Position numbers and translations under genes: made by a program
Origin: a virus
Lineage: Duplodnaviria; Heunggongvirae; Uroviricota; Caudoviricetes
Virus record (IMG/VR): IMGVR_UViG_2711768014_000006
DNA length: 44,064 nt
Strand: one strand, 5' to 3'
Part shown: positions 9,601-43,056 of the stretch, one piece after another
Layout of the letters: every line of letters starts with the position of its first letter
Numbering within the stretch: the stretch's first letter is position 1
The notes under the pieces: generated by a model
What the model saw: the letters and a program-made list of their open reading frames with translations, nothing else
Told to the model about the DNA's origin: nothing
Databases searched by the model: none

Positions 9601-10113
9601 ATGAATCGCGCTTCCCTGATTACCTTAATACATGTCGCAAAACGCGATCTACAGCTTGACCATGATACCTATACATCCGCGCTGCTGGCAGCCACCGGCA
9701 AATCCAGTTGCCGTGATATGTCACCCGGTGAGTTATCCCGCGTGCTGGATGTTTTCAAAAAACGCGGTTTTAAAGTGCGTCAGAAGCCGGTTAACCGGGC
9801 CTTAAAACCGGGTACGGTGACCGCCAAAATTCGCGCCATCTGGAAAGTGATGCACCGGCAGGGATTTATCTCTGATGGCGGGGAAACGGCCCTTAACCGC
9901 TGGGTGAAATCGCAGACGGCCGCGCAGAACGACGGCGAAGGTGTGGCTAACTGGCAGTGGCTGGAGCAACAACCCGCGCTGGCCTCTGATGTGCTGGAGC
10001 GTCTCAAACGCTGGCACCGCCGCAAAATGCTGGCAGCCCTGGATATGTCGGAACGTGCAGTGATGAGTTATGAGCGTGTTTGCAGGCTGTATGAAAAATC
10101 ATTCCCCCGTTAA
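9601..10113 (+). CDS. GemA-like regulatory protein (Mu gp16 family)
   Basis: 170-aa ORF at the end of the early operon, position and sequence consistent with Mu GemA. Confidence 0.65.
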   Translation: MNRASLITLIHVAKRDLQLDHDTYTSALLAATGKSSCRDMSPGELSRVLDVFKKRGFKVRQKPVNRALKPGTVTAKIRAIWKVMHRQGFISDGGETALNRWVKSQTAAQNDGEGVANWQWLEQQPALASDVLERLKRWHRRKMLAALDMSERAVMSYERVCRLYEKSFPR

Positions 10114-10118
10114 CCCCA

Positions 10119-10148
10119 AATCCCGCCACAGCGCGGGATTTTTATTTT
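10119..10148 (+). terminator. Rho-independent terminator at the end of the early operon
   Basis: Hairpin TCCCGC-CACAGC-GCGGGA followed by TTTTTATTTT. Confidence 0.6.
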
Positions 10149-10183
10149 AAACTTGCCCTGTGTAATGATGACCGGAGGCGGGT

Positions 10184-10606
10184 ATGGCTGAAACACAGAT
10201 GAGCATGTTTGGTGACAGCGAACAGCTGCACGCGCTGATTGACCGTCTGGATGATATTCCTGATGATGAGCTGAAAAAGAACTGGCCCGGCACGCTGCGG
10301 GACCTGGTTGATGTGATCAGTGCTGAACTGCACCGTCAGGGGATTGAACCTGCTCAGGCGGGAATGCTTGCCCGTAAGGTTGCAGCCGCACAGGCCGGGT
10401 ACATGGGCGGGCGTGGTTATTATCTCCCGGTCGGTGAATCCCTTTTCACCGAACTGCGCAATAATGAAATTTTTTCCCGCTGGAGCCAGGGCGAAAAAAT
10501 TGAAACCCTGCGCCGCCACTACCAGATGTCAGAGACGCAGATTTACTCCGTTATCCGCAACCAGCGTCGCCTGCATCAGGAACGCACGCAGCCACGGCTT
10601 TTCTGA
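10184..10606 (+). CDS. Mor/C-family transcriptional activator
   Basis: 140-aa product with Mor/C-like sequence; only one family member is present. Confidence 0.8.
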   Translation: MAETQMSMFGDSEQLHALIDRLDDIPDDELKKNWPGTLRDLVDVISAELHRQGIEPAQAGMLARKVAAAQAGYMGGRGYYLPVGESLFTELRNNEIFSRWSQGEKIETLRRHYQMSETQIYSVIRNQRRLHQERTQPRLF

Positions 10607-13499: not shown

Positions 13500-15163
13500 T
13501 GAACAAAGCCAGAGAAACGTCGCCTTCACTGATGCAAATGACGCCTCCCCGCAAAATTGATCTGTCAGGTGAAAAAGCCCTGCTGGGCGTGGATGTGCCG
13601 GACAGCCTTGATTTGCCCGGTGATATGCCGGTGTTTCTGGATTATCAGGCCCGCTGGTTTGCAGATGAAAGTCAGGTCTGCATCGCGGAGAAATCCCGCC
13701 GCACCGGTCTTACCTGGGCGGAAGCCGGGCGTAACGTCATTACTGCTGCAAAACCGAAGCGTCGTGGTGGCCGCAATGTGTTTTATGTGGGATCAAAGCA
13801 GGAGATGGCGCTGGAATATATTTCTGCCTGCGCGCTGTTCTCCCGTGCCTTTAACCAGCTGGCAGATGCTGATGTGTATGAGCAGACATTCTGGGATCGG
13901 GATAAAAAAGAAGAAATTTTGACCTACATGATCCGCTTTCCGAACAGTGGATTCAAAATTCAGGCATTGTCTTCCCGTCCGTCAAACCTGCGCGGCCTTC
14001 AGGGGGATGTGGTGATTGATGAAGCCGCGTTCCACGAGTCACTGGATGAGCTTCTCAAGGCGGCAATGGCGCTCACTATGTGGGGCGCGCGCGTGCGTAT
14101 TATCTCCACGCATAACGGCGTCGATAATCTGTTTAATCAGTACATTCAGGAAGCCCGCGAGGGGCGCAAGGATTACAGCGTCCACCGCATAACCCTGGAT
14201 GATGCCATTGCGGACGGGCTGTACCGTCGTATCTGTTACGTCACCGATCAGGAATGGTCACCGGAAAGCGAGCAGAAATGGCGTGATGATCTCTACAAAA
14301 ACGCCCCGACCCGTGAGGATGCCGACGAGGAATACGGCTGTATCCCGAAAAAATCCGGCGGTGCCTATATCCCCCACGCGCTTATTGAAATGGCGATGAT
14401 CCGCGACATCCCGATTCTGACGTTTGAAGCCCCGGACAACTTCATCAGCCGTGCCGCATGGCTGCGTGAATCGGAAGTTTTAACCTGGTGTGAAGAACAT
14501 TTAAAACCGCTTTTAGAGAAATTAAATCCCCGTTCCCGCTTCAGCTTCGGGGAAGACTTTGCCCGCACCGGTGACCTGTCCTGCTTTGTGCTGCTGGAAA
14601 TCACCGAATCCCTGGCAAAGCGCGAGGTGTTTCGCGTGGAGCTGCGCAACCTGCCGTATGCCCAGCAGGAACAGGTGATGATGTACATCCTGACCCGCGT
14701 TCCGGCGCTGGTCGGTGCGGCGTTCGACGCCACCGGTAACGGCGGCTATCTGGCAGAGGCCGCACTGCTGGCCTTTGGCCCGGACATCATCGACTGCGTG
14801 ATGTTGTCGCCGAAGTGGTACGGCGAGTGGATGCCAAAACTGAAAGCCGAGTTTGAAGATCAGAATATCCTCGTCGCCCGCCATCAGACCACGCTTGATG
14901 ATTTGCGCCATGTGAAGGTAGTGAATGGTATCCCGCAAATCGACAAGGGGCGCACGAAGGACCAGAACGCAACGGCTGCGAACGCCCGCCGCCATGGTGA
15001 TTTTGCCGTGGCGCTCTGTATGGCAAACCGGGCGTCATACATGGAGGGCTTCATCCTGGATGAATCAGCCTGTCAGGCGCTACAGGAGCGGTCGCGGGCA
15101 ATGGAGGGCGGTTATCGTGATGACGATGAGGCATATCATGAATTTGATCGGGGGGGCTGGTAG
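13496..15163 (+). CDS. Terminase large subunit (Mu gp28-like)
   Basis: 555-aa ORF in conserved position before the portal gene. Confidence 0.85.
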   Translation: MMNKARETSPSLMQMTPPRKIDLSGEKALLGVDVPDSLDLPGDMPVFLDYQARWFADESQVCIAEKSRRTGLTWAEAGRNVITAAKPKRRGGRNVFYVGSKQEMALEYISACALFSRAFNQLADADVYEQTFWDRDKKEEILTYMIRFPNSGFKIQALSSRPSNLRGLQGDVVIDEAAFHESLDELLKAAMALTMWGARVRIISTHNGVDNLFNQYIQEAREGRKDYSVHRITLDDAIADGLYRRICYVTDQEWSPESEQKWRDDLYKNAPTREDADEEYGCIPKKSGGAYIPHALIEMAMIRDIPILTFEAPDNFISRAAWLRESEVLTWCEEHLKPLLEKLNPRSRFSFGEDFARTGDLSCFVLLEITESLAKREVFRVELRNLPYAQQEQVMMYILTRVPALVGAAFDATGNGGYLAEAALLAFGPDIIDCVMLSPKWYGEWMPKLKAEFEDQNILVARHQTTLDDLRHVKVVNGIPQIDKGRTKDQNATAANARRHGDFAVALCMANRASYMEGFILDESACQALQERSRAMEGGYRDDDEAYHEFDRGGW

Positions 15164-16752
15164 TGGGACGCATCATTGATACTGACGGAAAACCTTTCTC
15201 CTTTGACCCGGAGATGCAGAGTGCCGCGCTGGATATTCCGCAGATTGCCAGCCGTTATATTGAACATCCGGCTTCGGGTATCACCCCGAACCGGGCGGCG
15301 CAGTGCCTTCGCGGGGCTGAACGTGGCGATCTGATTGCCCAGTCCGATCTGGCCGCTGATATTGAAGAAAAGGACACCCACCTTTTTGCGGAGCTGGGCA
15401 AGCGACGTCTTGCCATTCAGGGGGTGCCATGGAGTATTGAGCCGCCACCGAACGCCAGCGCGAATGAGAAAAAGGACGCGGAAATGCTCGACGAATATCT
15501 GCATTCCGCAGACTGGTTTGATGCCATGCTGTTTGACGCCACGGATGCCATCCTGAAGGGCTATTCCTGCATGGAAATTGAGCACGGGATGCTCGGTAAA
15601 ATGCACATCATCCGCGCCATCCGCTGGCGTGACAGCGGGCATTTCTGCCTTAACCCGGATGATTTGAGCGAACTGCGGCTGCGTGACGGCAGCCATGCCG
15701 GGGTGGCGTTTCAGCCCTTTGGCTGGATAGTGCATCAGTCGCGTTCACGCACCGGCTACGGTGGTGCGACGGGGCTTGTCAGAACGCTTATCTGGCCGTT
15801 CATTTTCAAAAACTATTCCGTGCGCGATCTGGCGGAATTTCTGGAGGTGTACGGCCTGCCAATGAAGGTCGGGAAATACCCGTCCGGGGCAACACCGGAG
15901 CAGAAAAGTGCCCTGATGCGGGCGGTGATGGATATCGGGCGACGTACAGGCGGGATCATCCCGGCCGGGATGTCGCTGGAGTTTCAGGCGGCAGCGAACG
16001 GTCAGGCCGATCCGTTTGAAACCATGATTTCGTGGGGTGAGCGTTCCATCTCCAAAGCAATACTCGGCGGCACGCTGACCACAGAAGCCGGAGACAAAGG
16101 CGCGCGCTCGCTGGGTGAGGTGCATAACGAGGTGCGCCGGGAAATCAGGGATTCTGATTTACGCCAGCTGGCTGCAACCCTGAACCGCGATCTGGTGTAT
16201 CCGCTGTATGCCCTGAACACCGCCCACGCCATTGATATCCGTCGCCTGCCGCGTATCTGTTTCCAGACCAAAGAACCGGGGGATATCACCAAAATAGCCA
16301 GTGCGGTGATGCAACTCAGTGCGGGGATGGATATTCCTGATCCCTGGGTACGGGATCAGACCGGTATTCCACAGCCCACGCCCGGTGAAGCCATATTCCG
16401 TGTCCGTCAGAGCAGTAATGAACCGGCCATGCCTGACAGGGAAACGCTACCGGAAAAACAGGAAAAGACAGAACAGACGGCGCTTTCAGCCCGACTGCCG
16501 GAAGCGAAAAACACGCCGCGTGATGAACTGGACGACATGGGGGACGCGGTGCCTGCCCGCCGCTTACAGGAGGCCATCGATCCGGTGCTGGAGCCGGTCA
16601 TTGATGTCATCAGAACGCGGGGGCTGGCGGAGGCACTGGCAGACCTGCCTGCCCTTTACCGTGAAATGGATGATTCCCGCCTGATGACGCTGCTCAGTGA
16701 TGCCATGTTTGCTGCGGAAATGAAGGGGATGCTGGATGGCTCAGGGGATTGA
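15163..16752 (+). CDS. Portal protein (Mu gp29-like)
   Basis: 529-aa ORF after terminase. Confidence 0.85.
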   Translation: MGRIIDTDGKPFSFDPEMQSAALDIPQIASRYIEHPASGITPNRAAQCLRGAERGDLIAQSDLAADIEEKDTHLFAELGKRRLAIQGVPWSIEPPPNASANEKKDAEMLDEYLHSADWFDAMLFDATDAILKGYSCMEIEHGMLGKMHIIRAIRWRDSGHFCLNPDDLSELRLRDGSHAGVAFQPFGWIVHQSRSRTGYGGATGLVRTLIWPFIFKNYSVRDLAEFLEVYGLPMKVGKYPSGATPEQKSALMRAVMDIGRRTGGIIPAGMSLEFQAAANGQADPFETMISWGERSISKAILGGTLTTEAGDKGARSLGEVHNEVRREIRDSDLRQLAATLNRDLVYPLYALNTAHAIDIRRLPRICFQTKEPGDITKIASAVMQLSAGMDIPDPWVRDQTGIPQPTPGEAIFRVRQSSNEPAMPDRETLPEKQEKTEQTALSARLPEAKNTPRDELDDMGDAVPARRLQEAIDPVLEPVIDVIRTRGLAEALADLPALYREMDDSRLMTLLSDAMFAAEMKGMLDGSGD

Positions 16753-18067
16753 TTTAGGTTATGCCGCCACGCTTCCCTCAAAAGAGACGGTGGCATACTT
16801 CCGCGCCAAAGGGGCGCATATCAGCTGGAACTGGTTCGAAACAGACGCGGATGTTCATGCCCGCTCATTCACGGCAGCAAAAACGGCACGGCTGGATGTG
16901 GTAACCACATTACAGGCCGAAGTGCAGCGGGCCATTGATGAGGGGATTTCACAGAAAGAATTTATCCGCACACTGACGCCACGCCTGCAAAAGCTGGGAT
17001 GGTGGGGAAAGCAGATTGTGGTGGACAGCGACGGTAACGCGGAAGAAGTGCAGCAGGGCAGTCCCCGTCGTCTGGCGCTGATTTACAACGTGAACACCCG
17101 TGTGGCTTACAATGCCGGGCGTTACACGCAGATGATGAACAACACGGACACGCATCCGTTCTGGCAGTATGTGGCGGTCATGGACAGCCGTACCCGCCCG
17201 TCGCATTCCGCCCTTAACGGTCTGGTATTCCGCTATGACGATCCGTTCTGGAAAACACACTACCCGCCCAATGGCTGGAACTGCCGCTGCCGTGTGCGGC
17301 CATTGTCTCAGGCCCGTCTGGATGCAATGGGGTTATCCGTTTCATCCGGTGAGGATCATCTCTCCACCCGCAATGTTGAGGCTGGCGTGGATAAACAGAC
17401 CGGAGAAGTCAGAGAAATGCCGGTGACCACATATTCAGATGGCGCCAGAACCATGACACCGGATGTGGGCTGGTCATATAACCCCGGCTCGGCAGCGTTC
17501 GGCACAGACCAGGCGCTGATCCGCAAACTGATCGAGGTGAAAAGCCCGGCGTTACGGGAAATGGTGGTTCAGGAGATGAACAACAGCCCGGAGCGGCAGC
17601 TGGCGTTCCGCATCTGGGCAAAAAACATCATGCAGACCCGGCGAGGTGGTAACGATATCCGCACGCTGGGCTTTATGACTGAAAGCATTGCGCAGGCAGT
17701 GGAAAGCCGGACGGGAACGCCACCGGCCCGCCTGCTGGCGATGAGCGGTAAAAATGTGCTCCATGCGGACAGTGTGAAACATCAGAATGACGGCATCGCT
17801 CTGACGCCGGAGGACTTCGGGCGCTTACCGGCAATGCTGGCAAGGCCAAAAGCGGTACTGTGGGACAAACGGCACAACAATCTGATGTATATCGTGGAAA
17901 ATCAGGATGGCAGTGTGCAGATTGCCGTTAATGCACCGTACAGTCTGAAACGTCAGCCCGACAAACTGGATGTGATTGTGAATGCTTACCGGGTTATCAA
18001 TATGGATAAGCTGAAATCGGATATCCGGGGCGGAATGCTTGAGGTGCTGGAAGGACAAATTGATTAA
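16736..18067 (+). CDS. Head morphogenesis protein (Mu F / gp30-like)
   Basis: 443-aa ORF after portal. Confidence 0.8.
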   Translation: MAQGIDLGYAATLPSKETVAYFRAKGAHISWNWFETDADVHARSFTAAKTARLDVVTTLQAEVQRAIDEGISQKEFIRTLTPRLQKLGWWGKQIVVDSDGNAEEVQQGSPRRLALIYNVNTRVAYNAGRYTQMMNNTDTHPFWQYVAVMDSRTRPSHSALNGLVFRYDDPFWKTHYPPNGWNCRCRVRPLSQARLDAMGLSVSSGEDHLSTRNVEAGVDKQTGEVREMPVTTYSDGARTMTPDVGWSYNPGSAAFGTDQALIRKLIEVKSPALREMVVQEMNNSPERQLAFRIWAKNIMQTRRGGNDIRTLGFMTESIAQAVESRTGTPPARLLAMSGKNVLHADSVKHQNDGIALTPEDFGRLPAMLARPKAVLWDKRHNNLMYIVENQDGSVQIAVNAPYSLKRQPDKLDVIVNAYRVINMDKLKSDIRGGMLEVLEGQID

Positions 18068-18068
18068 C

Positions 18069-18150
18069 GGTCAGTGGCGGGGGTCGAACCCGCATACATG
18101 ATCCACCCGGAGGCAGGCACCGACTTTACCAGTTAAGCGTACACTGACCG
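18069..18150 (-). other. tRNA-like element (acceptor helix, canonical D-arm and T-arm, no anticodon stem)
   Basis: Minus strand: 9-bp helix CGGTCAGTG/CACTGACCG, D-arm GCTT-AACTGGTA-AAGT, T-arm GCGGG-TTCGACC-CCCGC; the 29 nt in between cannot form a 5-bp anticodon stem. Confidence 0.3.
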
Positions 18151-18188
18151 CCTGTTTATTTTATATTCATCCTTTATGCGGAGGCAAT

Positions 18189-18662
18189 ATGTCATCCATT
18201 GATGCAGCTGTCGTTGTTGACGTTACGCGTCTCCAGCGAGTGTTTGCCCGGCTTCAGTTTGTGGGCGGCGGAAAAGACCTGGCCCGCAGTGTGGCGGCGA
18301 GTCTTCTGTCATCGTCAGAAATGGCGTTTGAGCAGGAAAAAGAGCCGGATGGTGAACGCTGGCATGACTGGTCAGATCCTTACCGTGAGTGGCGTACCCG
18401 TAAGGGATACACGCCCGGCAAAATCCTGACGCTGAACGGCGATCTGGCCCGCCGCCTGACCACGGATTATGGCGATACCTGGGCGCTGATTGGATCAAAT
18501 GAACCTTATGCAGCCATTCATCAGTGGGGTGGCCTGCCTGGTATGCCACCGGGACCGGCGGCCATTGGCGCACGTCCGTATATGGGCTTTGATCAGGTGG
18601 CAGAACAGGAGATCATGGACGAAATCAGAAAACGCTTTAAAAAGGCCACAGAAACGCCGTAA
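18189..18662 (+). CDS. Virion morphogenesis protein (Mu G-like)
   Basis: 157-aa ORF with GGAGG RBS in conserved position. Confidence 0.75.
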   Translation: MSSIDAAVVVDVTRLQRVFARLQFVGGGKDLARSVAASLLSSSEMAFEQEKEPDGERWHDWSDPYREWRTRKGYTPGKILTLNGDLARRLTTDYGDTWALIGSNEPYAAIHQWGGLPGMPPGPAAIGARPYMGFDQVAEQEIMDEIRKRFKKATETP

Positions 18663-18839
18663 TGGTTTAAGGTATGCAAACGTATTACCTTACCCCCTTC
18701 AGGCGCGTGTCGTGATTTTCTAACCTGTATTTAACGGGCTTTAAAATCTGCGTGAAGCGCCTTTCTCATTCCCCCCCTGTCAGCACTTTCTGAAGTCCCG
18801 CAAAACCAGCCCCAAAAATACCCGGCTTATGCTGCCGGT

Positions 18840-19973
18840 ATGAAGACAGAAAATCACCCAAAAGACGCAAATCGCCCCTCCGGTTTAGCCGTGCTTTCAG
18901 CTTCGCTGACTGCATCCGGCGACGGATGGTGTCAGTTACTGCCAGCCGGTCGGGTAAAGGCCCGTGACGGTCGCCCGGAAAAACCGACTGAAGGCTGGCT
19001 GATTAACGAATCCGCCTGTAACCGGATGAAAGCCGGGCTTTCCGCCCTGCATCAGCCGTTACTGATTGATTATGACCATCACTCCGTGAATGCGCAGAAA
19101 AACGGATTCAAGGCTATTGCTGCAGGATGGGTTAAGCCGGAAAACATCGAATGGCGTGAGGGTCAGGGGATTTTCATTAAACCTGAATGGACACCACAGG
19201 CACAAAAACATATTGATGACCGTGAATATGCCTATCTGTCTGCATATATGCATTATTTCGCTGACACCGGGGAACCCTACCTGTTGCGCATGGCTTCCCT
19301 GACGAATGATCCGGGTATTACGGGTATGAACCCTGTCGCGGCACTCAGTGCTGATGATCTCTATGTCGTTTCCCCTTCTCAGGAGCAATCCCCCATGAAT
19401 GAGCAATTACGCCAGTTGCTGACGGCGCTCGGTCTGACCGTGGCTGACGGTGACGAATTTACACCGGAACTGGGCACGGCGGCGCTGTCTGCCCTTACCG
19501 GGATCAAAACCCGTGCGGATGCGCACGACACCCTGAAAACGCAGGTTGCCAGCCTGTCGGCAGAACTGGAAACCGCAAAAGGCACACCAACTGGCGGCAC
19601 TATTGATCTGACGAAATATGTGCCCGTTGAGACGTATAACGCCCTGCGTACCGAATATGCCGCGCTGTCGGCACAACACGGCAGCACCACGCTGGAGCAG
19701 TTGCTGGATAAGGCCGAGTCCGAAGGACGCATTTTCAAAAGCGAACGCGGATACATGGAAGGACTCGGACAACAGATTGGCGTCGCGGCACTTTCTGCAC
19801 AGCTTGACGCCCGCCAGCCGGTTGCGGCTCTGACCACTCTTCAGACCGACACCGTAACCGTGCCGGATAAAAAGACCGCCACCGCTGTGCTGTCGGCTGA
19901 AGATATCGCCGCCGCACGTCTGTTGGGTAAAACCGAAGCCGAGTTCCTGAAAATGAAAGAGGAAATGCAATAA
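18840..19973 (+). CDS. Head maturation protease/scaffold (Mu I-like)
   Basis: 377-aa ORF directly upstream of the major head gene. Confidence 0.7.
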   Translation: MKTENHPKDANRPSGLAVLSASLTASGDGWCQLLPAGRVKARDGRPEKPTEGWLINESACNRMKAGLSALHQPLLIDYDHHSVNAQKNGFKAIAAGWVKPENIEWREGQGIFIKPEWTPQAQKHIDDREYAYLSAYMHYFADTGEPYLLRMASLTNDPGITGMNPVAALSADDLYVVSPSQEQSPMNEQLRQLLTALGLTVADGDEFTPELGTAALSALTGIKTRADAHDTLKTQVASLSAELETAKGTPTGGTIDLTKYVPVETYNALRTEYAALSAQHGSTTLEQLLDKAESEGRIFKSERGYMEGLGQQIGVAALSAQLDARQPVAALTTLQTDTVTVPDKKTATAVLSAEDIAAARLLGKTEAEFLKMKEEMQ

Positions 19974-20920
19974 TGCCTACCCCGATTACACCGGCGATGA
20001 TCACCGCCCTGATGACGGGCTACCGTTCTGATTTTCAGGCCGGGATGTCCATGGCTCCGTCGCAGTACCAGAAAATTGCGATGACCGTGCCGTCCACCTC
20101 GAAATCCAACACCTACGGCTGGCTGGGGCAGTTCCCGCAGTTCCGTGAGTGGATCGGCTCCCGCGTCATCGAGAAGATGAAAGCCTATGGCTACGCCATC
20201 GTGAACAAAACCTTTGAAGGCACCGTTGCCATTAGCCGCGATGACTTTGAAGACGACAATCTCGGCATCTACTCCCCGTTATTCCAGGAAATGGGTCGTG
20301 CCGCTGCGGCACAACCGGATGAACTGGTCTTTGCTGCACTGCGTGATGGTCTGAATGCGGCCTGCTATGACGGCCAGAACTTCTTTGATACCGAACACCC
20401 TGTTTACCCCAAAGTGGATGGCTCCGGTGATGCACAGATGGTCAGCAATATGTTTGTGGCAAAAACCGGCTCTGTCGGTGCACAGGCGGATTACAGCGGC
20501 CCGGCCTGGTATCTGCTTGACTGCTCCCGCGCGGTAAAACCGCTGATTTATCAGGATCGCCGCAAAGCCGAACTGGTTGCCCAGACAAAAGTCGATGAAG
20601 GCCGTGCGTTTACTGATAACGAGTTTGTGTTCGGTGCTTCCGCCCGTCGCAATGTGGGCTACGGCTTCTGGCAGATGGCCTACATGATGCAGTCACCGCT
20701 GACGCTGGATGCGCTGTGGCACGGCTGGTCAGCCATGCGTGACTTTAAGGCTGACGGTGGCCGCAAACTCGGCATCAAACCCACCCATATTGTTGTCCCC
20801 ACCTCGCTGGAAAAACAGGCGGTGCAGCTGCTGGAGCGCGAGCTGTTCGCAGACGGTAACGCCACAGTCTCTAACGAGATGAAGGGCAAGCTGGAGCTGG
20901 TTGTCGCGGATTATCTGTAA
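19973..20920 (+). CDS. Major head subunit (Mu T-like)
   Basis: 315-aa ORF, followed by a GC-rich hairpin at 20928-20946. Confidence 0.85.
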   Translation: MPTPITPAMITALMTGYRSDFQAGMSMAPSQYQKIAMTVPSTSKSNTYGWLGQFPQFREWIGSRVIEKMKAYGYAIVNKTFEGTVAISRDDFEDDNLGIYSPLFQEMGRAAAAQPDELVFAALRDGLNAACYDGQNFFDTEHPVYPKVDGSGDAQMVSNMFVAKTGSVGAQADYSGPAWYLLDCSRAVKPLIYQDRRKAELVAQTKVDEGRAFTDNEFVFGASARRNVGYGFWQMAYMMQSPLTLDALWHGWSAMRDFKADGGRKLGIKPTHIVVPTSLEKQAVQLLERELFADGNATVSNEMKGKLELVVADYL

Positions 20921-34835: not shown

Positions 34836-36890
34836 ATGTCAGACTCCAAGTGGAAAATGCTCTCCGCCATGCCCGGAGAGTTTTCAGTCAAGGTTGCCGG
34901 TGGCACGGTGGCATTTATTGAAAGCCCTTTCCGCCCTTCGGGTAATAAAGGGGGGATCACCTTCGCAGACTGCGTGATCCGCTTCAGCACGAAAGAGCCA
35001 TTATGGGTAATGCCGGTATCCGGTAATCCCAGTGCAGAAATCACCAGTTCAGGCGTGACTGGCATCATTCCAATCACATCTGACGTGGCCGGAACGCTCA
35101 CGCCCTCCGACTGGAATGCACCGGATAACGCCGGGCCTTCCGGTAGCACGAATGGCAGCAGTTCAGAGCCGGAATATTACTTTGTTGTCATTCTCGCGGG
35201 TCAGTCAAATGGCATGGCCTACGGCGAGGGGCTGCCGTTACCGGATTCGTTTGACCGCCCGGACCCACGCATTAAGCAACTGGCACGCCGCAGTACGGTA
35301 ACGCCCAACGGTACGTCGTGTACATACAACGACATCATTCCGGCAGACCACTGCCTGCATGATGTTCAGGATATGAGCGGGATAAACCACCCGAAAGCTG
35401 ATCTGGCAAAAGGCCAGTACGGGACTGTCGGTCAGGGGTTGCATATTGCCAAAAAACTGCTTCCCTATATCCCACAGAATGCCGGGATACTTCTGGTGCC
35501 CTGTTGTCGTGGCGGGTCAGCATTCACCACTGGAGCCGACGGCTCATTCAGTGAGGCCAGCGGTGCTTCCGCTGATTCTTCACGCTGGGGGGCCGGTAAA
35601 CCTCTGTATCAGGACCTGGTAAGCCGCACCAAAGTCGCGCTGGCGAAAAACCCGAAAAACAAACTTCTGGCTGTGGTCTGGATGCAGGGAGAGGCAGACC
35701 TTGCCTCAGGAAGCCAGCAGCATAATAGTTTATTCACGGCCATGGTTCAGCAGTTCAGAACTGACCTGGCTCCGCTTGCTGCGCAGTGCGTGAGTGGAAA
35801 TGCCACCACGGTGCCGTGGATTTGCGGTGATACCACGTATTACTGGAAAAACGCTGGCACCGATAAATATGAGGCAGTATACGGTGGCTACAAAGGCAAG
35901 GAAGCACAGAAAATTTTCTTTGTACCGTTCCTGACGGATGAGAATGGACAGAGCACGCCAACGAATGCTCCGGCGGAAGACCCGGATATTGTGGCTGTCG
36001 GGTATTACGGTGCAGCATCCCGAACCCAGGGCAGTTTTGTTTCGACACAGCGTGACAGCCATTTCAGCTCATGGGCACGCAGGGGCGTCATTTCAGACCG
36101 TCTGGCCTCAGCTATTATGCTCCATGCAGGGCGCACGGCTGAACTGATGCGTGGGCAGACCGTGACACCACCGGATGAGAAGCCGTCACCTGATACACCA
36201 TCAAAACCGTCCACGCCACCCGCAGACACCACGACGATGAGTACGCTATTTGCTTACCGGGCATCTGAGTCTGAAGGACGGTTGACACCACAGGGTTGGG
36301 CTGCCGGAGGTGGCAAGGCTCAAATCGTGGATGATGCCGGAGCCAGCGGGGGTAAGGCAATGAAACTGACCAAGGAAACAGGAAGAGCCCCCTGGTACCT
36401 TGAGCATGATGCTGGTAATGGTGCGGACCTGCTGGGTAAAGGTGGTCTTGTCAGTTGTCGTTTTAAACTCGATGGCGCGCTTACGGCTAATCAGTACGCA
36501 CTGGCGCTGTACTGGCCGGTTTCTGCCCTGCCGCAAGGGGTTACTCTGGAAGGAAATGCCGGTCATAACCTGCTGGCATCGTTCTACGTACAGAGCGATG
36601 CCACAGACCTTAACGTGATGTATCACAAAGGAAACACGGCGCAGAACACGAAGCTGGGGTCATTCGGCGCATTTAATAACGAATGGCATACGCTGGGCTT
36701 CCGTTTTGCCGGTAACAACAGTATTGAGGTGACGCCGGTCATTGATGGTAAGGACGGGACACCATTCATGCTGTCGCAGTCTCCGGTCGGCACGTTTACG
36801 GCAGACAAGTTGCGCGTGACCGATATCACTAAAAATGCGACTTACCCGGTACTGATTGACAGTATCGTGGTGGAAGTGAATAACGCGTAA
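34836..36890 (+). CDS. SGNH/sialate-O-acetylesterase-domain protein with N- and C-terminal extra domains (NanS-p-like prophage esterase candidate)
   Basis: Motif YFVVILAGQSNGMAYGEGLPLPD (GQSN esterase motif) about 130 aa in; Pro/Thr-rich linker then a C-terminal beta-rich domain; 684 aa. Confidence 0.6.
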   Translation: MSDSKWKMLSAMPGEFSVKVAGGTVAFIESPFRPSGNKGGITFADCVIRFSTKEPLWVMPVSGNPSAEITSSGVTGIIPITSDVAGTLTPSDWNAPDNAGPSGSTNGSSSEPEYYFVVILAGQSNGMAYGEGLPLPDSFDRPDPRIKQLARRSTVTPNGTSCTYNDIIPADHCLHDVQDMSGINHPKADLAKGQYGTVGQGLHIAKKLLPYIPQNAGILLVPCCRGGSAFTTGADGSFSEASGASADSSRWGAGKPLYQDLVSRTKVALAKNPKNKLLAVVWMQGEADLASGSQQHNSLFTAMVQQFRTDLAPLAAQCVSGNATTVPWICGDTTYYWKNAGTDKYEAVYGGYKGKEAQKIFFVPFLTDENGQSTPTNAPAEDPDIVAVGYYGAASRTQGSFVSTQRDSHFSSWARRGVISDRLASAIMLHAGRTAELMRGQTVTPPDEKPSPDTPSKPSTPPADTTTMSTLFAYRASESEGRLTPQGWAAGGGKAQIVDDAGASGGKAMKLTKETGRAPWYLEHDAGNGADLLGKGGLVSCRFKLDGALTANQYALALYWPVSALPQGVTLEGNAGHNLLASFYVQSDATDLNVMYHKGNTAQNTKLGSFGAFNNEWHTLGFRFAGNNSIEVTPVIDGKDGTPFMLSQSPVGTFTADKLRVTDITKNATYPVLIDSIVVEVNNA

Positions 36891-37034
36891 GCAGGATAAA
36901 AAAATGCCGCCGGTAAGGGAAAACAAGAAACCGGCGGCAAAAAGATCGTTATATCCAAAGCAAAAAATGCAGTGCACCTTTTTACCTAACAGATATTACC
37001 GGTGTCAACACCATGTCAATAATTGGGAGGGATA

Positions 37035-37217
37035 ATGACATTTTTACAGCTTATTTTATTGTATTTCTGCACGGCAGTATGTGCGTTATATCTGGTGAGT
37101 GGTGGTTATAAGGCCATCAGAAATTATGTTCGCCGCAAAATTGAGGACGCAGCAGCTGAAAAACTCAGTAAAACAGCGCAGGTAACTCCGCTCCCAAAAG
37201 ACCCGACCCAGCCCTGA
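37035..37217 (+). CDS. Small membrane protein
   Basis: ATG at 37035 after GGGAGGG; N-terminal hydrophobic helix FLQLILLYFCTAVCALYLV. Confidence 0.4.
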   Translation: MTFLQLILLYFCTAVCALYLVSGGYKAIRNYVRRKIEDAAAEKLSKTAQVTPLPKDPTQP

Positions 37218-37252
37218 TTGCAGGGCTTTATTCCCGCATAAGGAGGATATAC

Positions 37253-37507
37253 ATGCCAGAAATTAAAGGCACCGTCACTGAAGACCTGGTAAAACAGGCA
37301 CTGTATTCCGGTGAAGTAAATAAGTTGCTGAAAGCGCAGGTCCGCAAGGATTTTGAGGCACAAATCGACACTTACGTTGATGAAGTGCTGGCAAAACTTA
37401 TTGGGCCAGCAGTTGCGGCCAGTGATGCTGATAATGAGCCGAAAACCGACGCGCAGCCAGAGCAACCAGACCCGGCTCAGCCCGGAACTGACAGTACCAT
37501 GATGTAA
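37253..37507 (+). CDS. Small acidic hypothetical protein
   Basis: AAGGAGG RBS; 84 aa with Pro/Asp/Glu-rich tail. Confidence 0.45.
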   Translation: MPEIKGTVTEDLVKQALYSGEVNKLLKAQVRKDFEAQIDTYVDEVLAKLIGPAVAASDADNEPKTDAQPEQPDPAQPGTDSTMM

Positions 37508-37513
37508 CAATAC

Positions 37514-37539
37514 AAACCGGTGGTGTCCTCTGCCGGTTT
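37514..37539. terminator. Possible bidirectional terminator hairpin between convergent small genes
   Basis: AAACCGG-TGGTGTCCTCTG-CCGGTTT between the plus gene ending at 37507 and the minus gene ending at 37675. Confidence 0.35.
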
Positions 37540-37674
37540 GACACTAATGAAAACATCTTTGCCGCTATCCAGCCATATGTAATCGCTGGATAGTATTTCG
37601 TATTCAGAAATATAGCTGCTTATGGAGCAGTCAATCCTGCTTCCCCATCCGGGCAGGCAAATGAACCGGTATCA

Positions 37675-37968
37675 TTAGTCCGATTCACGCTTTTGTAGAA
37701 TCGTTCCCAGAATGCTATACAGCTCATTAGCCTGTTGCTCCATCATTGAGACGGAGGCTATACGGTGCAAAGTGATTTCAGGAGGTGGCACACCTCCATC
37801 TTCTTGCTGTGGAGGAAAAACATAAGATTTAATAAAAAAGTTGAAGCATATGAACTCTCCCGCACTCGAACTGTATTTGCAGGCATCTGAATAATCGGAA
37901 AAATAATCATTATAGATTTCCGCATTTTCAATCATTTTTCGATTTCTCGTCGTTACATGATTGTCCAT
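37675..37968 (-). CDS. Hypothetical protein (minus strand, AT-rich)
   Basis: 97-aa ORF with AAGAGG RBS, divergent from com-mom. Confidence 0.4.
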   Translation of the reverse strand: MDNHVTTRNRKMIENAEIYNDYFSDYSDACKYSSSAGEFICFNFFIKSYVFPPQQEDGGVPPPEITLHRIASVSMMEQQANELYSILGTILQKRESD

Positions 37969-38091
37969 AGCAGCCTCTTACGCTGGCAATTAACCAATTG
38001 ACTTCTATAAATTAGTTGATTTGTTTGCTTTGCGGTATTCAAATGTACAATCATTCAGCACTTATGCGTTACAGCACCGTTTAAAATTAGT

Positions 38092-38177
38092 GATCAAACT
38101 CATAAATTTTCGCTAATGACATTTCGTGTTATTTGTTGTATCAATTAAATAAATCAAATCGATCGTTTTTGTCGATC
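38092..38177 (+). promoter_or_regulatory. Three GATC sites upstream of com-mom (candidate Dam-methylation-sensitive control region)
   Basis: GATC at 38092, 38161 and 38174 in an AT-rich divergent intergenic region; parallels the Mu mom control region. Confidence 0.35.
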
Positions 38178-38224
38178 GATTGAGTGATAAAGATATCAAC
38201 AACAAAGCAGGAGGTTATGCGGCC

Positions 38225-38425
38225 ATGTATCGAAACATACGGTGCCGACATTGTAACAAGCTACTGGCACGAGCCAGCTTCAGTTATCTGGAAGTTAAAT
38301 GTCCGCGCTGTAAAACCCTCAATCAAATCACATCTCAGAGCGCCACAGAGCACCCCACATACACAAGGAAATCCTGTCGTGGGGAACAGAAAGCAAGTTA
38401 CATCCCGTATCATCAGCACGCCTGA
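38225..38425 (+). CDS. com: Com-like zinc-finger translational activator
   Basis: [35 protein letters not shown]... closely resembles Mu Com (IRCKNCNKLL...IRCPRCK); AGGAGG 10 nt upstream of the ATG. Confidence 0.7.
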
Positions 38426-39116
38426 ACTTATTCACTATAACGACAATATCGTCGGTTATGGCTCCCGTGAGTTACGGGTTGAGACAATAAGTTGCTGGCT
38501 GGCCCGGCTGGTCGTCGTCAATAAACATTACAGCCATCGTTTCGTAAATAATTCCTACCTTCATCTGGGCATATTTTCAGAACGGGAGCTGGTTGGCGTA
38601 ATGCAATGGGGTTATGCCCTTAATCCAAACAATGGTGCACGCGTCGTAACTGGCACGCAGAACCGCGAATATATGGAGCTTAACCGGTTATGGCTGCATG
38701 ACTGTATGCCGAGAAACTCCGAATCAAGGGCAATCAGTTACGCGCTCAAACTAATCAGACAACTTTATCCGCAGGTGCAGTGGGTTCAGTCGTTTGCAGA
38801 TGAGCGTTGTGGCTGTCTTGGTGTCGTGTACCAGGCAAGCAATTTTGATTATGTAGGCAGTCATGAAACAACATTCTATGAACTTGATGGCGAGTGGTAT
38901 CACGAGATTTGCAAGAATGCAATCAAACGAGGAGGACAGCGAGGTGAACATCTGCGGGCTAATATCGACAGAGCCAGTGTTCATAAATTCCGTCAGTTTC
39001 GTTACATCCGGTTTCTGGACAAGAGAGCCAGAAAACGCCTTAACACAAAGCTATTCAAAGTCCAGCCTTACCCAAAACCACAAACAGTTAAAACTGGTTT
39101 GAAAGAGAGTGAATGA
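38379..39116 (+). CDS. mom: Mom-like DNA modification protein; start uncertain (the open frame extends upstream to 38184)
   Basis: Frame overlaps the 3' end of com as in Mu; a GTG at 38379 gives about 245 aa, close to the ~241 aa I recall for Mu Mom. Confidence 0.55.
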
Positions 39117-39161
39117 ACGCTTAAAAACTCATTCTAAAACTCAAAAGAAAAGCGCCGATTT

Positions 39162-39230
39162 AGTATCAAATAAGTTGCGTATCGGCGTTTTTCAGCGGTA
39201 TCAAATGAAATGCAAATCGGTATCAAAAAA
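39162..39230 (-). repeat. Right-end transposase binding sites (three contiguous inverted copies of the TTTGATAC motif)
   Basis: AGTATCAAA (39162-39170), CGGTATCAAA (39197-39206), TCGGTATCAAA (39218-39228); contiguous like Mu R1-R3. Confidence 0.5.
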
Positions 39231-39274
39231 ATCGCCGCGCTATAGACAGCCTAAGCGGCTGCTGACCTCCCTGA

Positions 39275-39830
39275 CCATGCTGTAAATCTCTTTATCCTGG
39301 TTGTCACAGAATAAGCCCGGTAAAATACGGGCTTATGAACGACATCTCTTCTGACGACATCTTCCTGCTGAAACAGCGCCTTGCCGAACGTCAGTTGAAA
39401 ACGAAACCGCTGCTGAAATCCCTGGAAAGCTGGCTGCGTGAAAAGATGAAAACCCTGTCGCGACACTCAGAACTGGCGAAAGCGTTCGCATATGCCCTGA
39501 ACCAGTGGCCGGCGCTGACGTACTATGCAGATGATGGCTGGGCTGAGGCGGACAATAACATCGCTGAAAATGCGTTGCGGATGGTCAGTCTGGGCCGCAA
39601 AAACTACCTGTTCTTCGGTTCGGATCATGGAGGAGAGCGGGGAGCGCTGCTGTACAGCCTGATCGGGACGTGCAAACTGAACGGAGTGGAGCCAGAAAGC
39701 TACCTCCGCTATGTCCTTGACGTCATAGCCGACTGGCCGATAAACCGGGTCGGCGAACTGCTCCCCTGGCGCGTAGCACTGCCGACTGAATAACACATTC
39801 CCGTCAATACGGTTCTTGCTGCACGCTTAC
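39275..39830 (+). mobile_element. IS66-family element, right portion, ending at the IS terminus
   Basis: Reverse complement of 39813-39830 is GTAAGCGTGCAGCAAGAA, the GTAA-type terminal repeat of IS66-family elements as I recall it. Confidence 0.55.
39335..39793 (+). pseudogene. IS66-family transposase TnpC, C-terminal fragment (about 150 of ~520 aa)
   Basis: ...ADDGWAEADNNIAENALRMVSLGRKNYLFFGSDHGGERGALLYSLIGTCKLNGVEPESYLRYVLDVIADWPINRVGELLPW matches the conserved C-terminus of IS66 transposases; the N-terminal two thirds are absent. Confidence 0.75.
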
Positions 39831-39846
39831 GGTAAACACCCCGGAA

Positions 39847-40875
39847 GTGGTGATGCACACTGTTGCTGATGTGATGACAGGAAACGATGGTGAATACTGT
39901 TTCCATGCGCGGACTGGAAAATATGGTGTGTATCTGAAACCGGGCTGGCACAACGAGTACAACGTTGGCGACATTGCTGTATACGACGACTCAAAGCCCG
40001 GCACGCTGAATGACTTTCTGATTGCTCCTGATGAGGGCGACCTGAAACCGGATGTCGTCAAACGCTTTGAGGAAATGGTGGCGCAGGCGCAGCAGAGCGC
40101 CGGGGCAGCAGGCGAAAAGGCACAACAGAAGTCCCGGGATAATCTGGGGCTGAAAAGTGCGGCCACGATGGAAGCACAGAGCGACATTTACGACCGGACA
40201 AAAGGCCGTCTGGCGATACCCGGCGCATTCGGCTTTGGGTGTGCTTTTCTGCCTGAAGATGTTATCCGTTTTGACACTAAGAGTGATTTCCTGGCCTGGG
40301 TAAGGAATGCGCTGCCAGGTGAATATTCCGTTGCTGGCCCCTACGACATCATCATACCCGACACACGGTTTGAAGGGGTGCTCAGCATCCGGTGGACTGA
40401 TGCACGCCCTGAGACAACAGAACCGAGGTACAGAGCCAAATCCCTTACTTTTTACGGCATTAACGGCCCCATTTATCACACCCGCTACTGCTACTGGCCC
40501 ATATCCAGACTGACTGGCTGGGTGAAAATAAATATAACCACAGAAGATATTATTTACAGAATCGTGGCGAGCTCTGTCTGCAACAGATGGGGAGACCCTG
40601 ACATTGGCGGGCTGATTATTGCTGCGTACCAGGGAGAAGCTGACGGTGATAAAGTCATCAGACTTGTCAGGGGGCAGTCATACAGAGGCTCACGACTGGG
40701 ACCGGTGGGGATTTCAGTGCCCAGTACTCCCACCGGAACGTATATAGCATCCCCACAATTTTTCATTACGGGATGTTCAGAGCATTCATTACCGGGGTCA
40801 TATTGCGCCCTGTCCGGGGTGCCGGATGCTCATGTCTCTGGCGCAATGCCCGGGCTTTTTATTCGCACATCGTGA
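39847..40875 (+). CDS. Phage tail-fibre-like protein, probably a C-terminal fragment truncated by the IS66 insertion
   Basis: 342-aa ORF beginning 17 bp after the IS66 terminus, followed by a chaperone-like gene. Confidence 0.4.
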   Translation: MVMHTVADVMTGNDGEYCFHARTGKYGVYLKPGWHNEYNVGDIAVYDDSKPGTLNDFLIAPDEGDLKPDVVKRFEEMVAQAQQSAGAAGEKAQQKSRDNLGLKSAATMEAQSDIYDRTKGRLAIPGAFGFGCAFLPEDVIRFDTKSDFLAWVRNALPGEYSVAGPYDIIIPDTRFEGVLSIRWTDARPETTEPRYRAKSLTFYGINGPIYHTRYCYWPISRLTGWVKINITTEDIIYRIVASSVCNRWGDPDIGGLIIAAYQGEADGDKVIRLVRGQSYRGSRLGPVGISVPSTPTGTYIASPQFFITGCSEHSLPGSYCALSGVPDAHVSGAMPGLFIRTS

Positions 40876-40885
40876 GGAATGCACC

Positions 40886-41798
40886 GTGGAAATTAAAAAA
40901 ATCATTAATCCCCGTTATACCGAAAGTGGCGCAGTAGACTGTGACGTTTTTTTTGACGACAGGGACCAGGCAGTCCCCTACACAGCCACCGCTGATGATG
41001 TCGCACCGACGGGTCAGCGAATCTGGCAGGAACTGCAAAGTGGCAAATGGGGTGAGATAGCCCCATTCACTGTGACACCAGAAATGCTGGAAGCGGCCAG
41101 AGAGGCCAGACGTCAGGAAATTGAAGCATGGCGCACAGAACAGGAGGCGAAGCCGTTCACGTTTGAATGGAATGGTCGTATCTGGAATGCTGGCCCCGAC
41201 TCACTGGGCCGCCTGTCCCCGGTAGTCATGCTGGCAAAATCTGTCACAGCACAAACNNNNNNNNNNNNNNNNNNNNNNNNNNNNNNNNNNNNNNNNNNNN
41301 NNNNNNNNNNNNNNNNNNNNNNNNNNNNNNNNNNNNNNNNNNNNNNNNNNNNNNNNNNNNNNNNNNNNNNNNNNNNNNNNNNNNNNNNNNNNNNNNNNNN
41401 NNNNNNNNNNNNNNNNNNNNNNNNNNNNNNNNNNNNNNNNNNNNNNNNNNNNNNNNNNNNNNNNNNNNNNNNNNNNNNNNNNNNNNNNNNNNNNNNNNNN
41501 NNNNNNNNNNNNNNNNNNNNNNNNNNNNNNNNNNNNNNNNNNNNNNNNNNNNNNNNNNNNNNNNNNNNNNNNNNNNNNNNNNNNNNNNNNNNNNNNNNNN
41601 NNNNNNNNNNNNNNNNNNNNNGATGCCGATAATCAGCAGGTGAAACTGTCGATGCCGGAACTGGAAGAACTGGCGGCAGCAATGGTGCAGGCGCAGGTCG
41701 ATCGCAACGATGAGATTTATCGCCGTCAGCGTGAAATGAAAGAGGAGCTGAGTGGTCTGGAGGATTTGGGAACAATTAGAGCGTTTGATGTTACGTAA
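40886..41798 (+). CDS. Tail-fibre assembly/chaperone-like protein, interrupted by the assembly gap
   Basis: GTG start after GAGGAA; coding resumes after the N run and ends at TAA 41796-41798; frame continuity across the gap cannot be checked. Confidence 0.35.
41257..41621. other. Assembly gap (365 N)
   Basis: Run of N characters. Confidence 0.99.
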
Positions 41799-41996: not shown

Positions 41997-42359
41997 TGGT
42001 GGAGCTGGCGGGAGTTGAACCCGCGTCCGAAATTCCTACATCCTCGGTACTACATGCTTAGTCAGTCTTTACATTCGCTTGCCAGCTGCGGACGGACACG
42101 CCACTAACAAACTAGCCTGATTAAGTTTTAACGCTTCAACCCCAGGCAGGGCTTCCACGCGATCTCTTTTGGGTTTGACCTCTCTTGATCCCCGTCCTAA
42201 GAGCGGAGGCTAGGGAGAGAGGGCTCTAAGCAGGTTATTAAGCTGCTAAAGCGTAGTTTTCGTCGTTTGCGACTATTTTTTGCGGCTTTTTACGAGGCCA
42301 ACCGCCCCTCGGCATGCACCTTGGGTTTCGCAAATCCCGTCGAATCCAGAATCAGCCCC
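41997..42359 (-). ncRNA. ssrA: tmRNA (SsrA), 363 nt
   Basis: Reverse complement reads GGGGCTGATTCTGGATTCGACGGG...tag-peptide region...GGACGCGGGTTCAACTCCCGCCAGCTCCACCA, the enterobacterial ssrA sequence. Confidence 0.95.
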
Positions 42360-42573: not shown

Positions 42574-43056
42574 TTAACGGTGGGCGTTTTTCATGATACG
42601 TGCTTTATCCACCTGCCATTCGCGTTCTTTGATATCTGAACGTTTATCGTGCTGTTTTTTACCTTTGGCGACGCCGATTTTCACTTTGCACCAGGCATTT
42701 TTCCAGTACAGGGAGAGCGCCACTACGGTATAGCCTTCTCGATTGACGCGACCGTACAATGAGTCCAGTTCGCGCTGGTTGAGAAGTAACTTGCGGGTAC
42801 GGGTAGGATCGCACACCACATGCGTGGAGGCCACGGCCATTGGCGTGATGTTAGCGCCAAACAGAAATGCCTCTCCGTCACGCAGAAGGACGTAGCTGTC
42901 GCTGATATTGGCTTTTCCTGCGCGCAGGGATTTAACTTCCCAGCCTTGCAGGGCAAGTCCCGCTTCGAACTCTTCTTCGATAAAGTATTCGTGACGGGCG
43001 CGCTTGTTAAGCGCGATGGTCGCTGAACCAGGTTTATGTGCTTTTTTCTTCGTCAT
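42574..43056 (-). CDS. smpB: SsrA-binding protein SmpB
   Basis: 160-aa product [44 protein letters not shown]...; upstream of ssrA on the same strand. Confidence 0.95.

Follow-up and report, generated by a model that had tools for sequence, protein, structure and literature searches.

Colicin D and colicin E5 cut tRNAs in the anticodon loop, and the colicin D immunity protein (ImmD) mimics tRNA, which provides a precedent for the inhibition of an RNase by a look-alike of its tRNA substrate. In type III toxin–antitoxin systems (ToxIN-like), which are phage-associated, a small structured RNA encoded beside an endoribonuclease neutralizes the RNase; the RNA gene is a tandem repeat array that lies upstream of the toxin gene on the same strand and is processed by the toxin. 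Viruses also encode non-decoding RNAs with tRNA-like ends, including transcripts of murine gammaherpesvirus 68 (MHV68), the stable RNAs ‘species 1 and 2’ of phage T4, and the CI RNA of P4 and C4 RNA of P1, which are processed by RNase P. To our knowledge, none of these viral RNAs is the partner of a virion RNase domain, and we know of no RNA inhibitor of an RNase of the Barnase–EndoU–ColicinE5/D–RelE (BECR) fold.

Candidate BECR RNases have been predicted in phage heads. Profile analysis assigned MuF-C, the C-terminal domain of the Mu F family, to a phage branch of the BECR RNases that is colicin D-like and has a characteristic catalytic histidine within the N-terminal helix (Iyer et al. 2017, PMC5512222). 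The copy in Mu gp30 was predicted to be inactive, and its orthologues to be probably active RNases (PMC5512222).

Here we analysed 44,064 nucleotides of a Caudoviricetes genome (IMG/VR record IMGVR_UViG_2711768014_000006; the whole stretch is referred to as the window) and describe, beside a gene F with a MuF-C domain, a gene for a tRNA-shaped RNA with no anticodon loop. Sequence comparisons show that, among the phages, this RNA gene occurs only together with an intact predicted RNase motif in F, and this suggests a previously undescribed partnership between an RNA and an RNase. The closest working analogies are type III toxin–antitoxin systems and the colicin D–ImmD pair, although the parts differ in nature from those of both. 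If the pairing is functional, this would be the first BECR-fold RNase found to be inhibited by an RNA, and the first immunity molecule that consists of a tRNA body whose anticodon loop is closed. It would also make the C-terminal domain of the classical Mu F family, so far unexplained, accessible to experiment; account for the fact that the module never came to light in laboratory Mu, from which both parts have been lost; and bear on the attack of host RNA by injected phage proteins and on the self-protection of lysogens and satellites.

The RNA gene between F and G

The window contains the head genes of a Mu-like prophage on its plus strand (Table 1). F has the Pfam domains Phage_Mu_F and MuF_C, is 59% identical to Mu gp30 and is labelled in RefSeq as a head and DNA pilot protein. 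The RNA gene is located on the minus strand within the 121-bp spacer between F and G, and the F stop codon abuts its 3′ end. In loci without the RNA gene, F and G abut or overlap; phage Mu, in which the RNA gene is absent, has overlapping F and G genes. We searched phages without the RNA gene for a degenerate remnant and saw none, with F and G directly adjoining.

Table 1 Positions in the window of the RNA gene, its parts and the surrounding features
Feature	Position	Strand	Description	Basis
Portal gene	15163–16752	+	Mu-like prophage gene	ORF list
Gene F	16736–18067	+	443 aa; MuF family minor head/DNA pilot protein	ORF, Pfam
H-A-D-S-V-K-H codons	17762–17782	+	F residues 343–349; putative catalytic motif, start of the MuF-C (PBECR) domain
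77-codon ORF	17825–18058	−	Opposite strand to the last part of F; begins 10 nt downstream of the RNA 3′ end
Variable cassette	17836–18236		Last ~230 nt of F, RNA gene and promoter	Sliding identity
RNA gene	18068–18150	−	Anticodon-less, tRNA-shaped	Sequence; Rfam tRNA; family model; NCBI annotation
T arm	18077–18093	−	GCGGG, loop UUCGACC, CCCGC
Variable loop	18097–18094	−	4 nt, GUAU, after the central arm
Central arm	18098–18120	−	At the anticodon-arm position	Folding
Hairpin of central arm	18116–18103	−	CUGCC/GGUGG (two G·U pairs), UCCG tetraloop	Folding
D arm	18121–18139	−	Stem CGCUU/AAG(U)CG, one bulged U; loop AACUGGUA
Sigma-70-type promoter	18158–18187	−	TTGCCT-18 nt-TAAAAT; predicted start a few nt before the acceptor helix
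Gene G	18189–18662	+	Virion morphogenesis, Phage_tail_S family (Pfam); downstream neighbour	ORF list
G–I spacer	18663–18839		177 nt
Gene I	18840–19973	+	Protease/scaffold	ORF list
Gene T	19973–20920	+	Major head protein	ORF list
tmRNA gene	41997–42359		Tag ANDENYALAA	ARAGORN; RF00023
smpB-positioned ORF	42574–43056

The RNA is 80 nt in length and has the acceptor stem, D arm, T arm and conserved loop nucleotides of a tRNA. In 7-bp numbering the acceptor stem spans 18148–18070, with the discriminator C at 18069, and it extends to 9 bp at 18150/18068. The resulting terminal helix, in which CGGTCAGTG (18150–18142) pairs perfectly with CACTGACCG (18076–18068) on the minus strand, is the one noticed in an earlier reading of the sequence alone (the sequence-only reading). 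U8–A9 is present. The T arm is canonical, as that reading stated. The D arm, which it also called canonical, is so in its loop, AACUGGUA, which carries A14, G18G19 and A21, but not fully in its stem of 5 bp with a bulged U. The middle segment, which that reading judged unable to form an anticodon stem, does fold, into a closed hairpin above a possible 3-bp basal stem (GUG/CAU); what it lacks is the 7-nt anticodon loop. There is no 5-bp stem that bears a 7-nt loop with U33 and an anticodon, and no CCA is encoded, as C-G-U-U comes after the acceptor strand.

Compared with canonical tRNAs (RF00005), the element is alike in its 7-bp acceptor, U8, G18G19 D loop, 4-nt variable loop, T arm with a GTTCGA loop and length of ~80 nt. 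It differs in that a closed hairpin, with a loop of 4 nt here and 3–14 nt in relatives, replaces the 7-nt anticodon loop; the 5-bp D stem has a defect, the acceptor helix is 9 bp and CCA is lacking. It is also rejected by ARAGORN, which found no tRNA at the element in the window or in loci L001–L004 and reported only the tmRNA in the window. Comparison with Rfam, a check that the sequence-only reading had proposed, gave a divided result. In a permissive small-window search, the Rfam tRNA model matched 18069–18148 at 31.0 bits (gathering score, 29; E = 9.4 × 10−5) by skipping the anticodon arm through a local end, but the default gathering run on the whole window did not report the element as a tRNA.

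The tRNA-like domain of tmRNA and the Y RNA (YrlA) module also keep the geometry of the acceptor and T arm without a decoding anticodon. However, tmRNA lacks a D stem, encodes its CCA and contains pseudoknots and a reading frame, and the tRNA-like part of YrlA is embedded in a Ro-binding stem; the Rfam models for tmRNA and Y RNA had no match at the element. The RNAs of MHV68, T4, P4 and P1 resemble it in being virus-encoded, in their tRNA-like ends and in not being for translation, but they have no sequence or family relationship to it.

Other identities were considered and rejected. The element is only ~80 nt in length and the tmRNA model RF00023 matches only the tmRNA gene further along the window, so it is not a tmRNA; a 19-nt T-arm match is all that the two genes have in common, and the sequence-only reading was correct in stating that the element does not copy the ssrA 3′ end. 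A histidine-tRNA-like identity (G−1:C73) was also rejected, as the −1:73 pair is always complementary but varies (G:C, G·U or U:A) and merely lengthens the helix. The tmRNA gene itself and the smpB-positioned ORF are ~7 kb past the apparent right end of the prophage (about 34.8 kb), and the intervening genes (34836–41775) could be part of an ssrA-linked island.

We searched viral contigs, and one genome per species, by pattern and by protein anchor and obtained a family of more than 60 distinct sequences, which have a common position and strand in Mu-like prophages throughout the Gammaproteobacteria. A strict DNA pattern scan of one genome per species had no matches, and a relaxed pattern was required. 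The element is present in 230 of 5,426 complete Escherichia coli genomes, and many of these carry the NCBI pipeline label ‘tRNA-OTHER’ at the identical site, antisense to F and G. If the pairing with F is functional, this label in hundreds of E. coli, Salmonella, Photorhabdus and Pasteurellaceae genomes would stand for a distinct family of non-coding RNAs, a candidate for Rfam.

A covariance model built from 16 family members (R1) scores the window copy at 89.2 bits (E about 2 × 10−24); the element is far beyond chance. In Mu-like phages whose G proteins are only 40% identical to that of the window, the model finds a single match with unchanged position and strand. It separates the family (40–94 bits, best copy per locus) from real tRNAs in the same loci (20–35 bits), with the exception of two extra tandem copies in a distant Mu-like phage (L107), which score about 20 bits. 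Among 37 sequences, 93.7% of cells are paired, compared with 40–47% when the partners are slid by 1–3 columns, and compensatory (both-sided) changes are found in 17 of 19 pairs; none of 500 shuffles reached the observed values. The T arm is paired in 100% of cases, and both it and the D stem have compensatory changes in 4 of their 5 pairs. A model-independent run with MAFFT and RNAalifold recovered the same three helices, with compensatory changes in 16 of 18 pairs. On the minus strand, G·U pairs outnumber A·C pairs by 33 to 3, and the minus strand is therefore the RNA strand. The sequence-only reading had named a lack of helix covariation or a random covariance-model score as evidence against it and had proposed to look for conservation in related Mu-like prophages. 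Covariation, score and conservation all came out in its favour, and its core idea of a minus-strand tRNA-like RNA without a decoding arm is upheld by the strand bias, the covariation of the helices and the conserved promoter described below.

Across the family, the 7-bp acceptor helix is always lengthened by one or two pairs, the discriminator is C, U or A, and no member encodes CCA; the D stem is 4–5 bp with a conserved G18G19 loop, and a 4-nt variable loop precedes the T arm. The central arm begins directly after the D arm and forms a closed hairpin in every member, with sequences that are unrelated between lineages: a basal stem of 3–5 bp, usually an internal loop, a distal stem of 3–8 bp and a loop of 3–14 nt that is often UUCG, UCCG, UCAG or AACA. 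In L107 (2126–2437), three tandem anticodon-less tRNA-like genes are situated between F and G; each has an acceptor stem and a central hairpin unlike those of the others, and the promoter-like site is strong in all but the middle copy, where it is weak.

The sigma-70-type promoter of the window copy is the sole promoter-like site in 17700–18500; on the opposite strand, its −35 hexamer coincides in part with the ribosome-binding region of gene G. A sigma-70 promoter about 5 nt upstream of the RNA stem is conserved across the family: 58 of 64 distinct upstream regions contain a −10 hexamer that ends 0–14 nt ahead of the start of the model (34% of shuffles), and 52 of 64 reach a combined promoter score of at least 8 out of 12 (12% of shuffles). 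In AT-rich relatives (Photorhabdus, Gilliamella and Pasteurellaceae), an intrinsic terminator directly follows the 3′ acceptor strand; the enterobacterial copies end at the F stop codon and no terminator was seen in them. On the basis of its own promoter, the terminator in AT-rich relatives and the conserved anatomy, the element is, as judged from sequence, an independent gene for a non-decoding tRNA-shaped RNA. Read-through from the promoter would take in the 77-codon antisense ORF, which is probably spurious. According to the Mu annotation, the late promoter of gene I lies in the Mu spacer that is equivalent to the G–I spacer, along with a terminator and the strong gyrase site.

The C-terminal domain of F and its coupling to the RNA gene

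The C terminus of F matches Pfam MuF_C (PF18819) at 29.8 and 32.9 bits (cut-off, 27.6), and relatives of F have weak matches to the Pfam families PBECR2 and PBECR3. In RNA-bearing phages, H30, K35–H36 and Y105 of the domain are invariant and D32, S33, N86 and N103 are nearly so; these residues are deleted or replaced in Mu and in other lineages without the RNA gene. The H-x-D-S-x-K-H motif, which is deleted in phage Mu, comprises both invariant histidines and the lysine. An AlphaFold model from a 23-sequence alignment (pLDDT 75) has helices followed by four strands, where a BECR fold would have an N-terminal helix and then 4–5 strands; a single-sequence model (pLDDT 52) was too poor for use. 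Sequence searches with the F C terminus against solved structures returned only noise, and searches of protein databases with the domain found few relatives, all of which are close. The BECR fold of MuF-C is thus a prediction that derives mainly from the published profile analysis (PMC5512222) and that our data fit.

The motif is located ~100 residues before the F C terminus in RNA-bearing loci, accompanied by a conserved NAP...KRQPD.LDV.INAYR segment, and it is so close to the RNA gene (~300 bp) that physical linkage inflates any count of their co-occurrence. With that effect included, all RNA-bearing loci among 70 found through G encode H-x-D-S-x-K-H in F (in L107 as the variant HANRPKH), and in all of those without the RNA gene the motif is deleted or degenerate. 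Forty further loci were found through an intact-type C terminus, and the RNA gene directly follows the F stop codon in 38 of them. The exceptions are L173, in which F is disrupted, and L225, which has a mutated motif (HADSQKH to DASSPTS), no RNA gene and abutting F and G genes; a close relative of the latter, L213, has both parts. Among genome loci with an adjacent F-type ORF, the motif is present in 21 of 22, and the ORF of the remaining locus (L152) is cut by the locus edge before the motif.

In a tree of F residues 1–325, lineages without both parts (the Mu group, L065, L068, L092/93, L100/105 and L109/114) are interspersed among lineages with both. Each degenerate C terminus is closest to the intact C termini of its own neighbourhood and not to other degenerate ones. 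These patterns, together with L225, indicate at least seven independent coupled losses. The cultured phages Mu, D108, SfMu and the Yersinia Mu-like phages are all of the type that is missing both the RNA gene and the F motif, and this probably explains why the module stayed undescribed. Among phage GenBank records with a matching F-type C terminus, Pasteurella phage Pmp9 is the only isolated-phage record with the RNA gene, which it carries unannotated (L234 1892–1976; OR544140.1 about 10103–10187). We found no published description of the RNA in the literature on Mu-like phages, PBECR RNases, tRNA-like antitoxins, colicin D and tRNA mimicry, or Pmp9. It appears that neither the family nor its strict link with an intact MuF-C motif has been described.

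As toxin and immunity pairs do, the end of F and the RNA gene diverge jointly and so behave as a single cassette. Between E. coli prophages that are 93–100% identical on both sides, the cassette is only 64–83% identical, and G proteins are 97–98% identical where the spacer is only 73–74% identical. In one locus (L059) the RNA is 89% identical, compared with about 73% for its flanks.

Copies without F

Orphan copies of the family, with neither an F nor a PBECR gene, are found in an E. coli island and in chromosomes; no PBECR protein was found near any of them. By analogy, they would resemble orphan immunity genes. The island is 8 kb in length and is integrated beside tRNA-Ile (L115 1505–9394; NZ_AP045176.1 about 744.5–752.4 kb; the same region as L004). 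It encodes an integrase, an HTH regulator, ash, Icd-like genes, DUF4222, a RepA-type helicase, SSB, PerC and a Mor-family activator, and ends in two tandem family copies that represent the two cassette types. The island resembles a satellite or parasite of Mu-like phages. One island copy is labelled ‘tRNA-Tyr’ by NCBI, which is probably wrong given that its central hairpin is a palindrome with a 6-nt loop.

Single chromosomal copies occur in Klebsiella, Rheinheimera, Marinobacterium, Gallibacterium and others. In two species the copy sits right at the trailer end of a type I-E CRISPR array: Klebsiella spallanzanii (L121 3100–4138), in which 19 nt separate it from the last repeat, and Enterobacteriaceae bacterium G50 (L116 2391–4600), in which this distance is about 150 nt and the RNA gene is flanked by the array and the iap peptidase gene. 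Both copies converge with array transcription and have their own promoter-like site. This type of orphan was not found in E. coli genomes. As PBECR RNases have been speculated to target CRISPR RNAs (PMC5512222), the placement may not be accidental.

Candidate roles of the RNA

The observed structure, strand, promoter and distribution of the RNA, and its co-occurrence and co-variation with the F motif, leave several roles to be weighed. The one that we favour, although we would put it slightly short of an even chance, is that the RNA is an uncleavable tRNA look-alike that binds and neutralizes the F RNase and so acts as an immunity factor or antitoxin; RNase activity, binding and inhibition are what we infer. 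A constitutive sigma-70 promoter dedicated to the RNA would drive its synthesis in antisense to the head operon; the product, small, stable and non-decoding, would form a two-part module with the adjacent MuF-C (PBECR, colicin D-like) domain. F is a head protein and is believed to enter the next host along with the DNA. The RNA would present the acceptor, T and D body that the RNase recognizes, and with the anticodon loop zipped shut this pseudo-substrate would block the enzyme. It could thereby protect the tRNA pool of the producing cell while F is synthesized and assembled, and protect lysogens, and elements with orphan copies, from the F of related phages.

An anticodon-less tRNA body is the expected appearance of a non-cleavable inhibitor, because colicins D and E5 cut anticodon loops and ImmD mimics tRNA. 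The predicted place of MuF-C in the colicin D branch of the BECR RNases (PMC5512222) makes the likeness closer; the inhibitor of colicin D is a protein, whereas here it would be an actual tRNA-like RNA. As in type III toxin–antitoxin systems, an RNA gene is adjacent to a gene for a (here predicted) endoribonuclease and strictly co-occurs with it, and the proposed logic would be the same. However, the predicted RNase in this case is not a ToxN/Kid-like enzyme but one domain within a virion protein, for which a BECR fold is predicted, and the RNA is tRNA-shaped, single-copy, on the opposite strand, downstream of F and under its own promoter. There is no same-strand tandem array upstream of the putative toxin gene; only L107 has three copies.

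A wider version of this proposal, which we advance more tentatively, is an effector–immunity pair with matched specificity cassettes. Virion F would deliver a colicin D-like tRNase with the DNA, and the phage, its lysogens, the putative Mu satellite island and some chromosomes would encode the RNA immunity factor. The sequence-only reading had suggested a mimic that titrates a tRNA-binding host factor. Its idea of tRNA mimicry comes closest to the immunity proposal, but strict co-occurrence indicates the phage’s own F as the partner and not a host factor.

Some considerations weigh against immunity. Transcription of the RNA converges with that of the late operon, and its synthesis could drop just as F is made. 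The highly variable central arm might carry specificity for a target other than F. Co-occurrence suits equally well an RNA that is a substrate, cofactor or cargo of the F RNase domain and not its inhibitor, a role that we consider rather unlikely. F could bind or cut the RNA, in 3′ maturation or to give fragments, or an RNA–protein complex could be packed in the head and the RNA act in the next host. The co-variation of the cassette fits this as it fits immunity, enterobacterial copies without a terminator would need 3′ processing, the three tandem copies of L107 recall the repeat arrays that are processed by type III toxins, and the RefSeq name of F is that of a DNA pilot protein. However, orphan copies with no F or PBECR gene nearby are hard to explain for a cofactor of F, the promoter is of a constitutive type and not under late-operon control, and relatives with a terminator directly after the stem have no obvious need for a dedicated nuclease. 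The constitutive-type promoter, the orphan copies and the co-variation of the cassette are our reasons for preferring immunity to a cofactor role.

We think it improbable that the RNA is an independent accessory gene (a ‘moron’) that serves as a decoy for tRNA-attacking or tRNA-sensing enzymes of the host or of competitors—such as anticodon nucleases, toxins that modify the acceptor end, and bacteriocin or contact-dependent tRNases—and is associated with the F motif through linkage only. Its own promoter, its antisense orientation, its precise insertion between genes that abut in Mu, the orphans in chromosomes (two of them beside CRISPR arrays) and a rapidly diversifying central arm, which an arms race would be expected to produce, would all suit a decoy. 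Linkage alone, however, fails to account for at least seven coupled losses in which the intervening F sequence is kept and the conserved polar residues decay, and without an anticodon loop the RNA would not compete as a substrate of anticodon nucleases.

The remaining readings are contradicted by covariation, strand bias and the promoter. That the element is a cis-acting structure of the late mRNA between F and G, for processing or stability (as the sequence-only reading had suggested) or for translational coupling, is very improbable: it does lie inside the late transcript and its reverse complement also folds, but this requires the wrong strand, on which the fold is no better than that of shuffled sequences (z = −0.05), the 33 G·U pairs would turn into A·C mismatches and the tRNA signature loops, like the conserved promoter, read in the other direction. 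Least credible of all is a decaying tRNA pseudogene or a remnant of a tRNA-type attachment site, the latter also raised in the sequence-only reading; although the Rfam score is borderline, CCA is not encoded and the NCBI label is noncommittal (tRNA-OTHER), the cloverleaf body and the promoter are under selection, the site is uninterrupted in all homologues, compensatory changes keep every helix across phages with G proteins as little as 40% identical, the central hairpin is always kept despite its unrelated sequence, and the RNA is sometimes better conserved than its flanks, as in L059.
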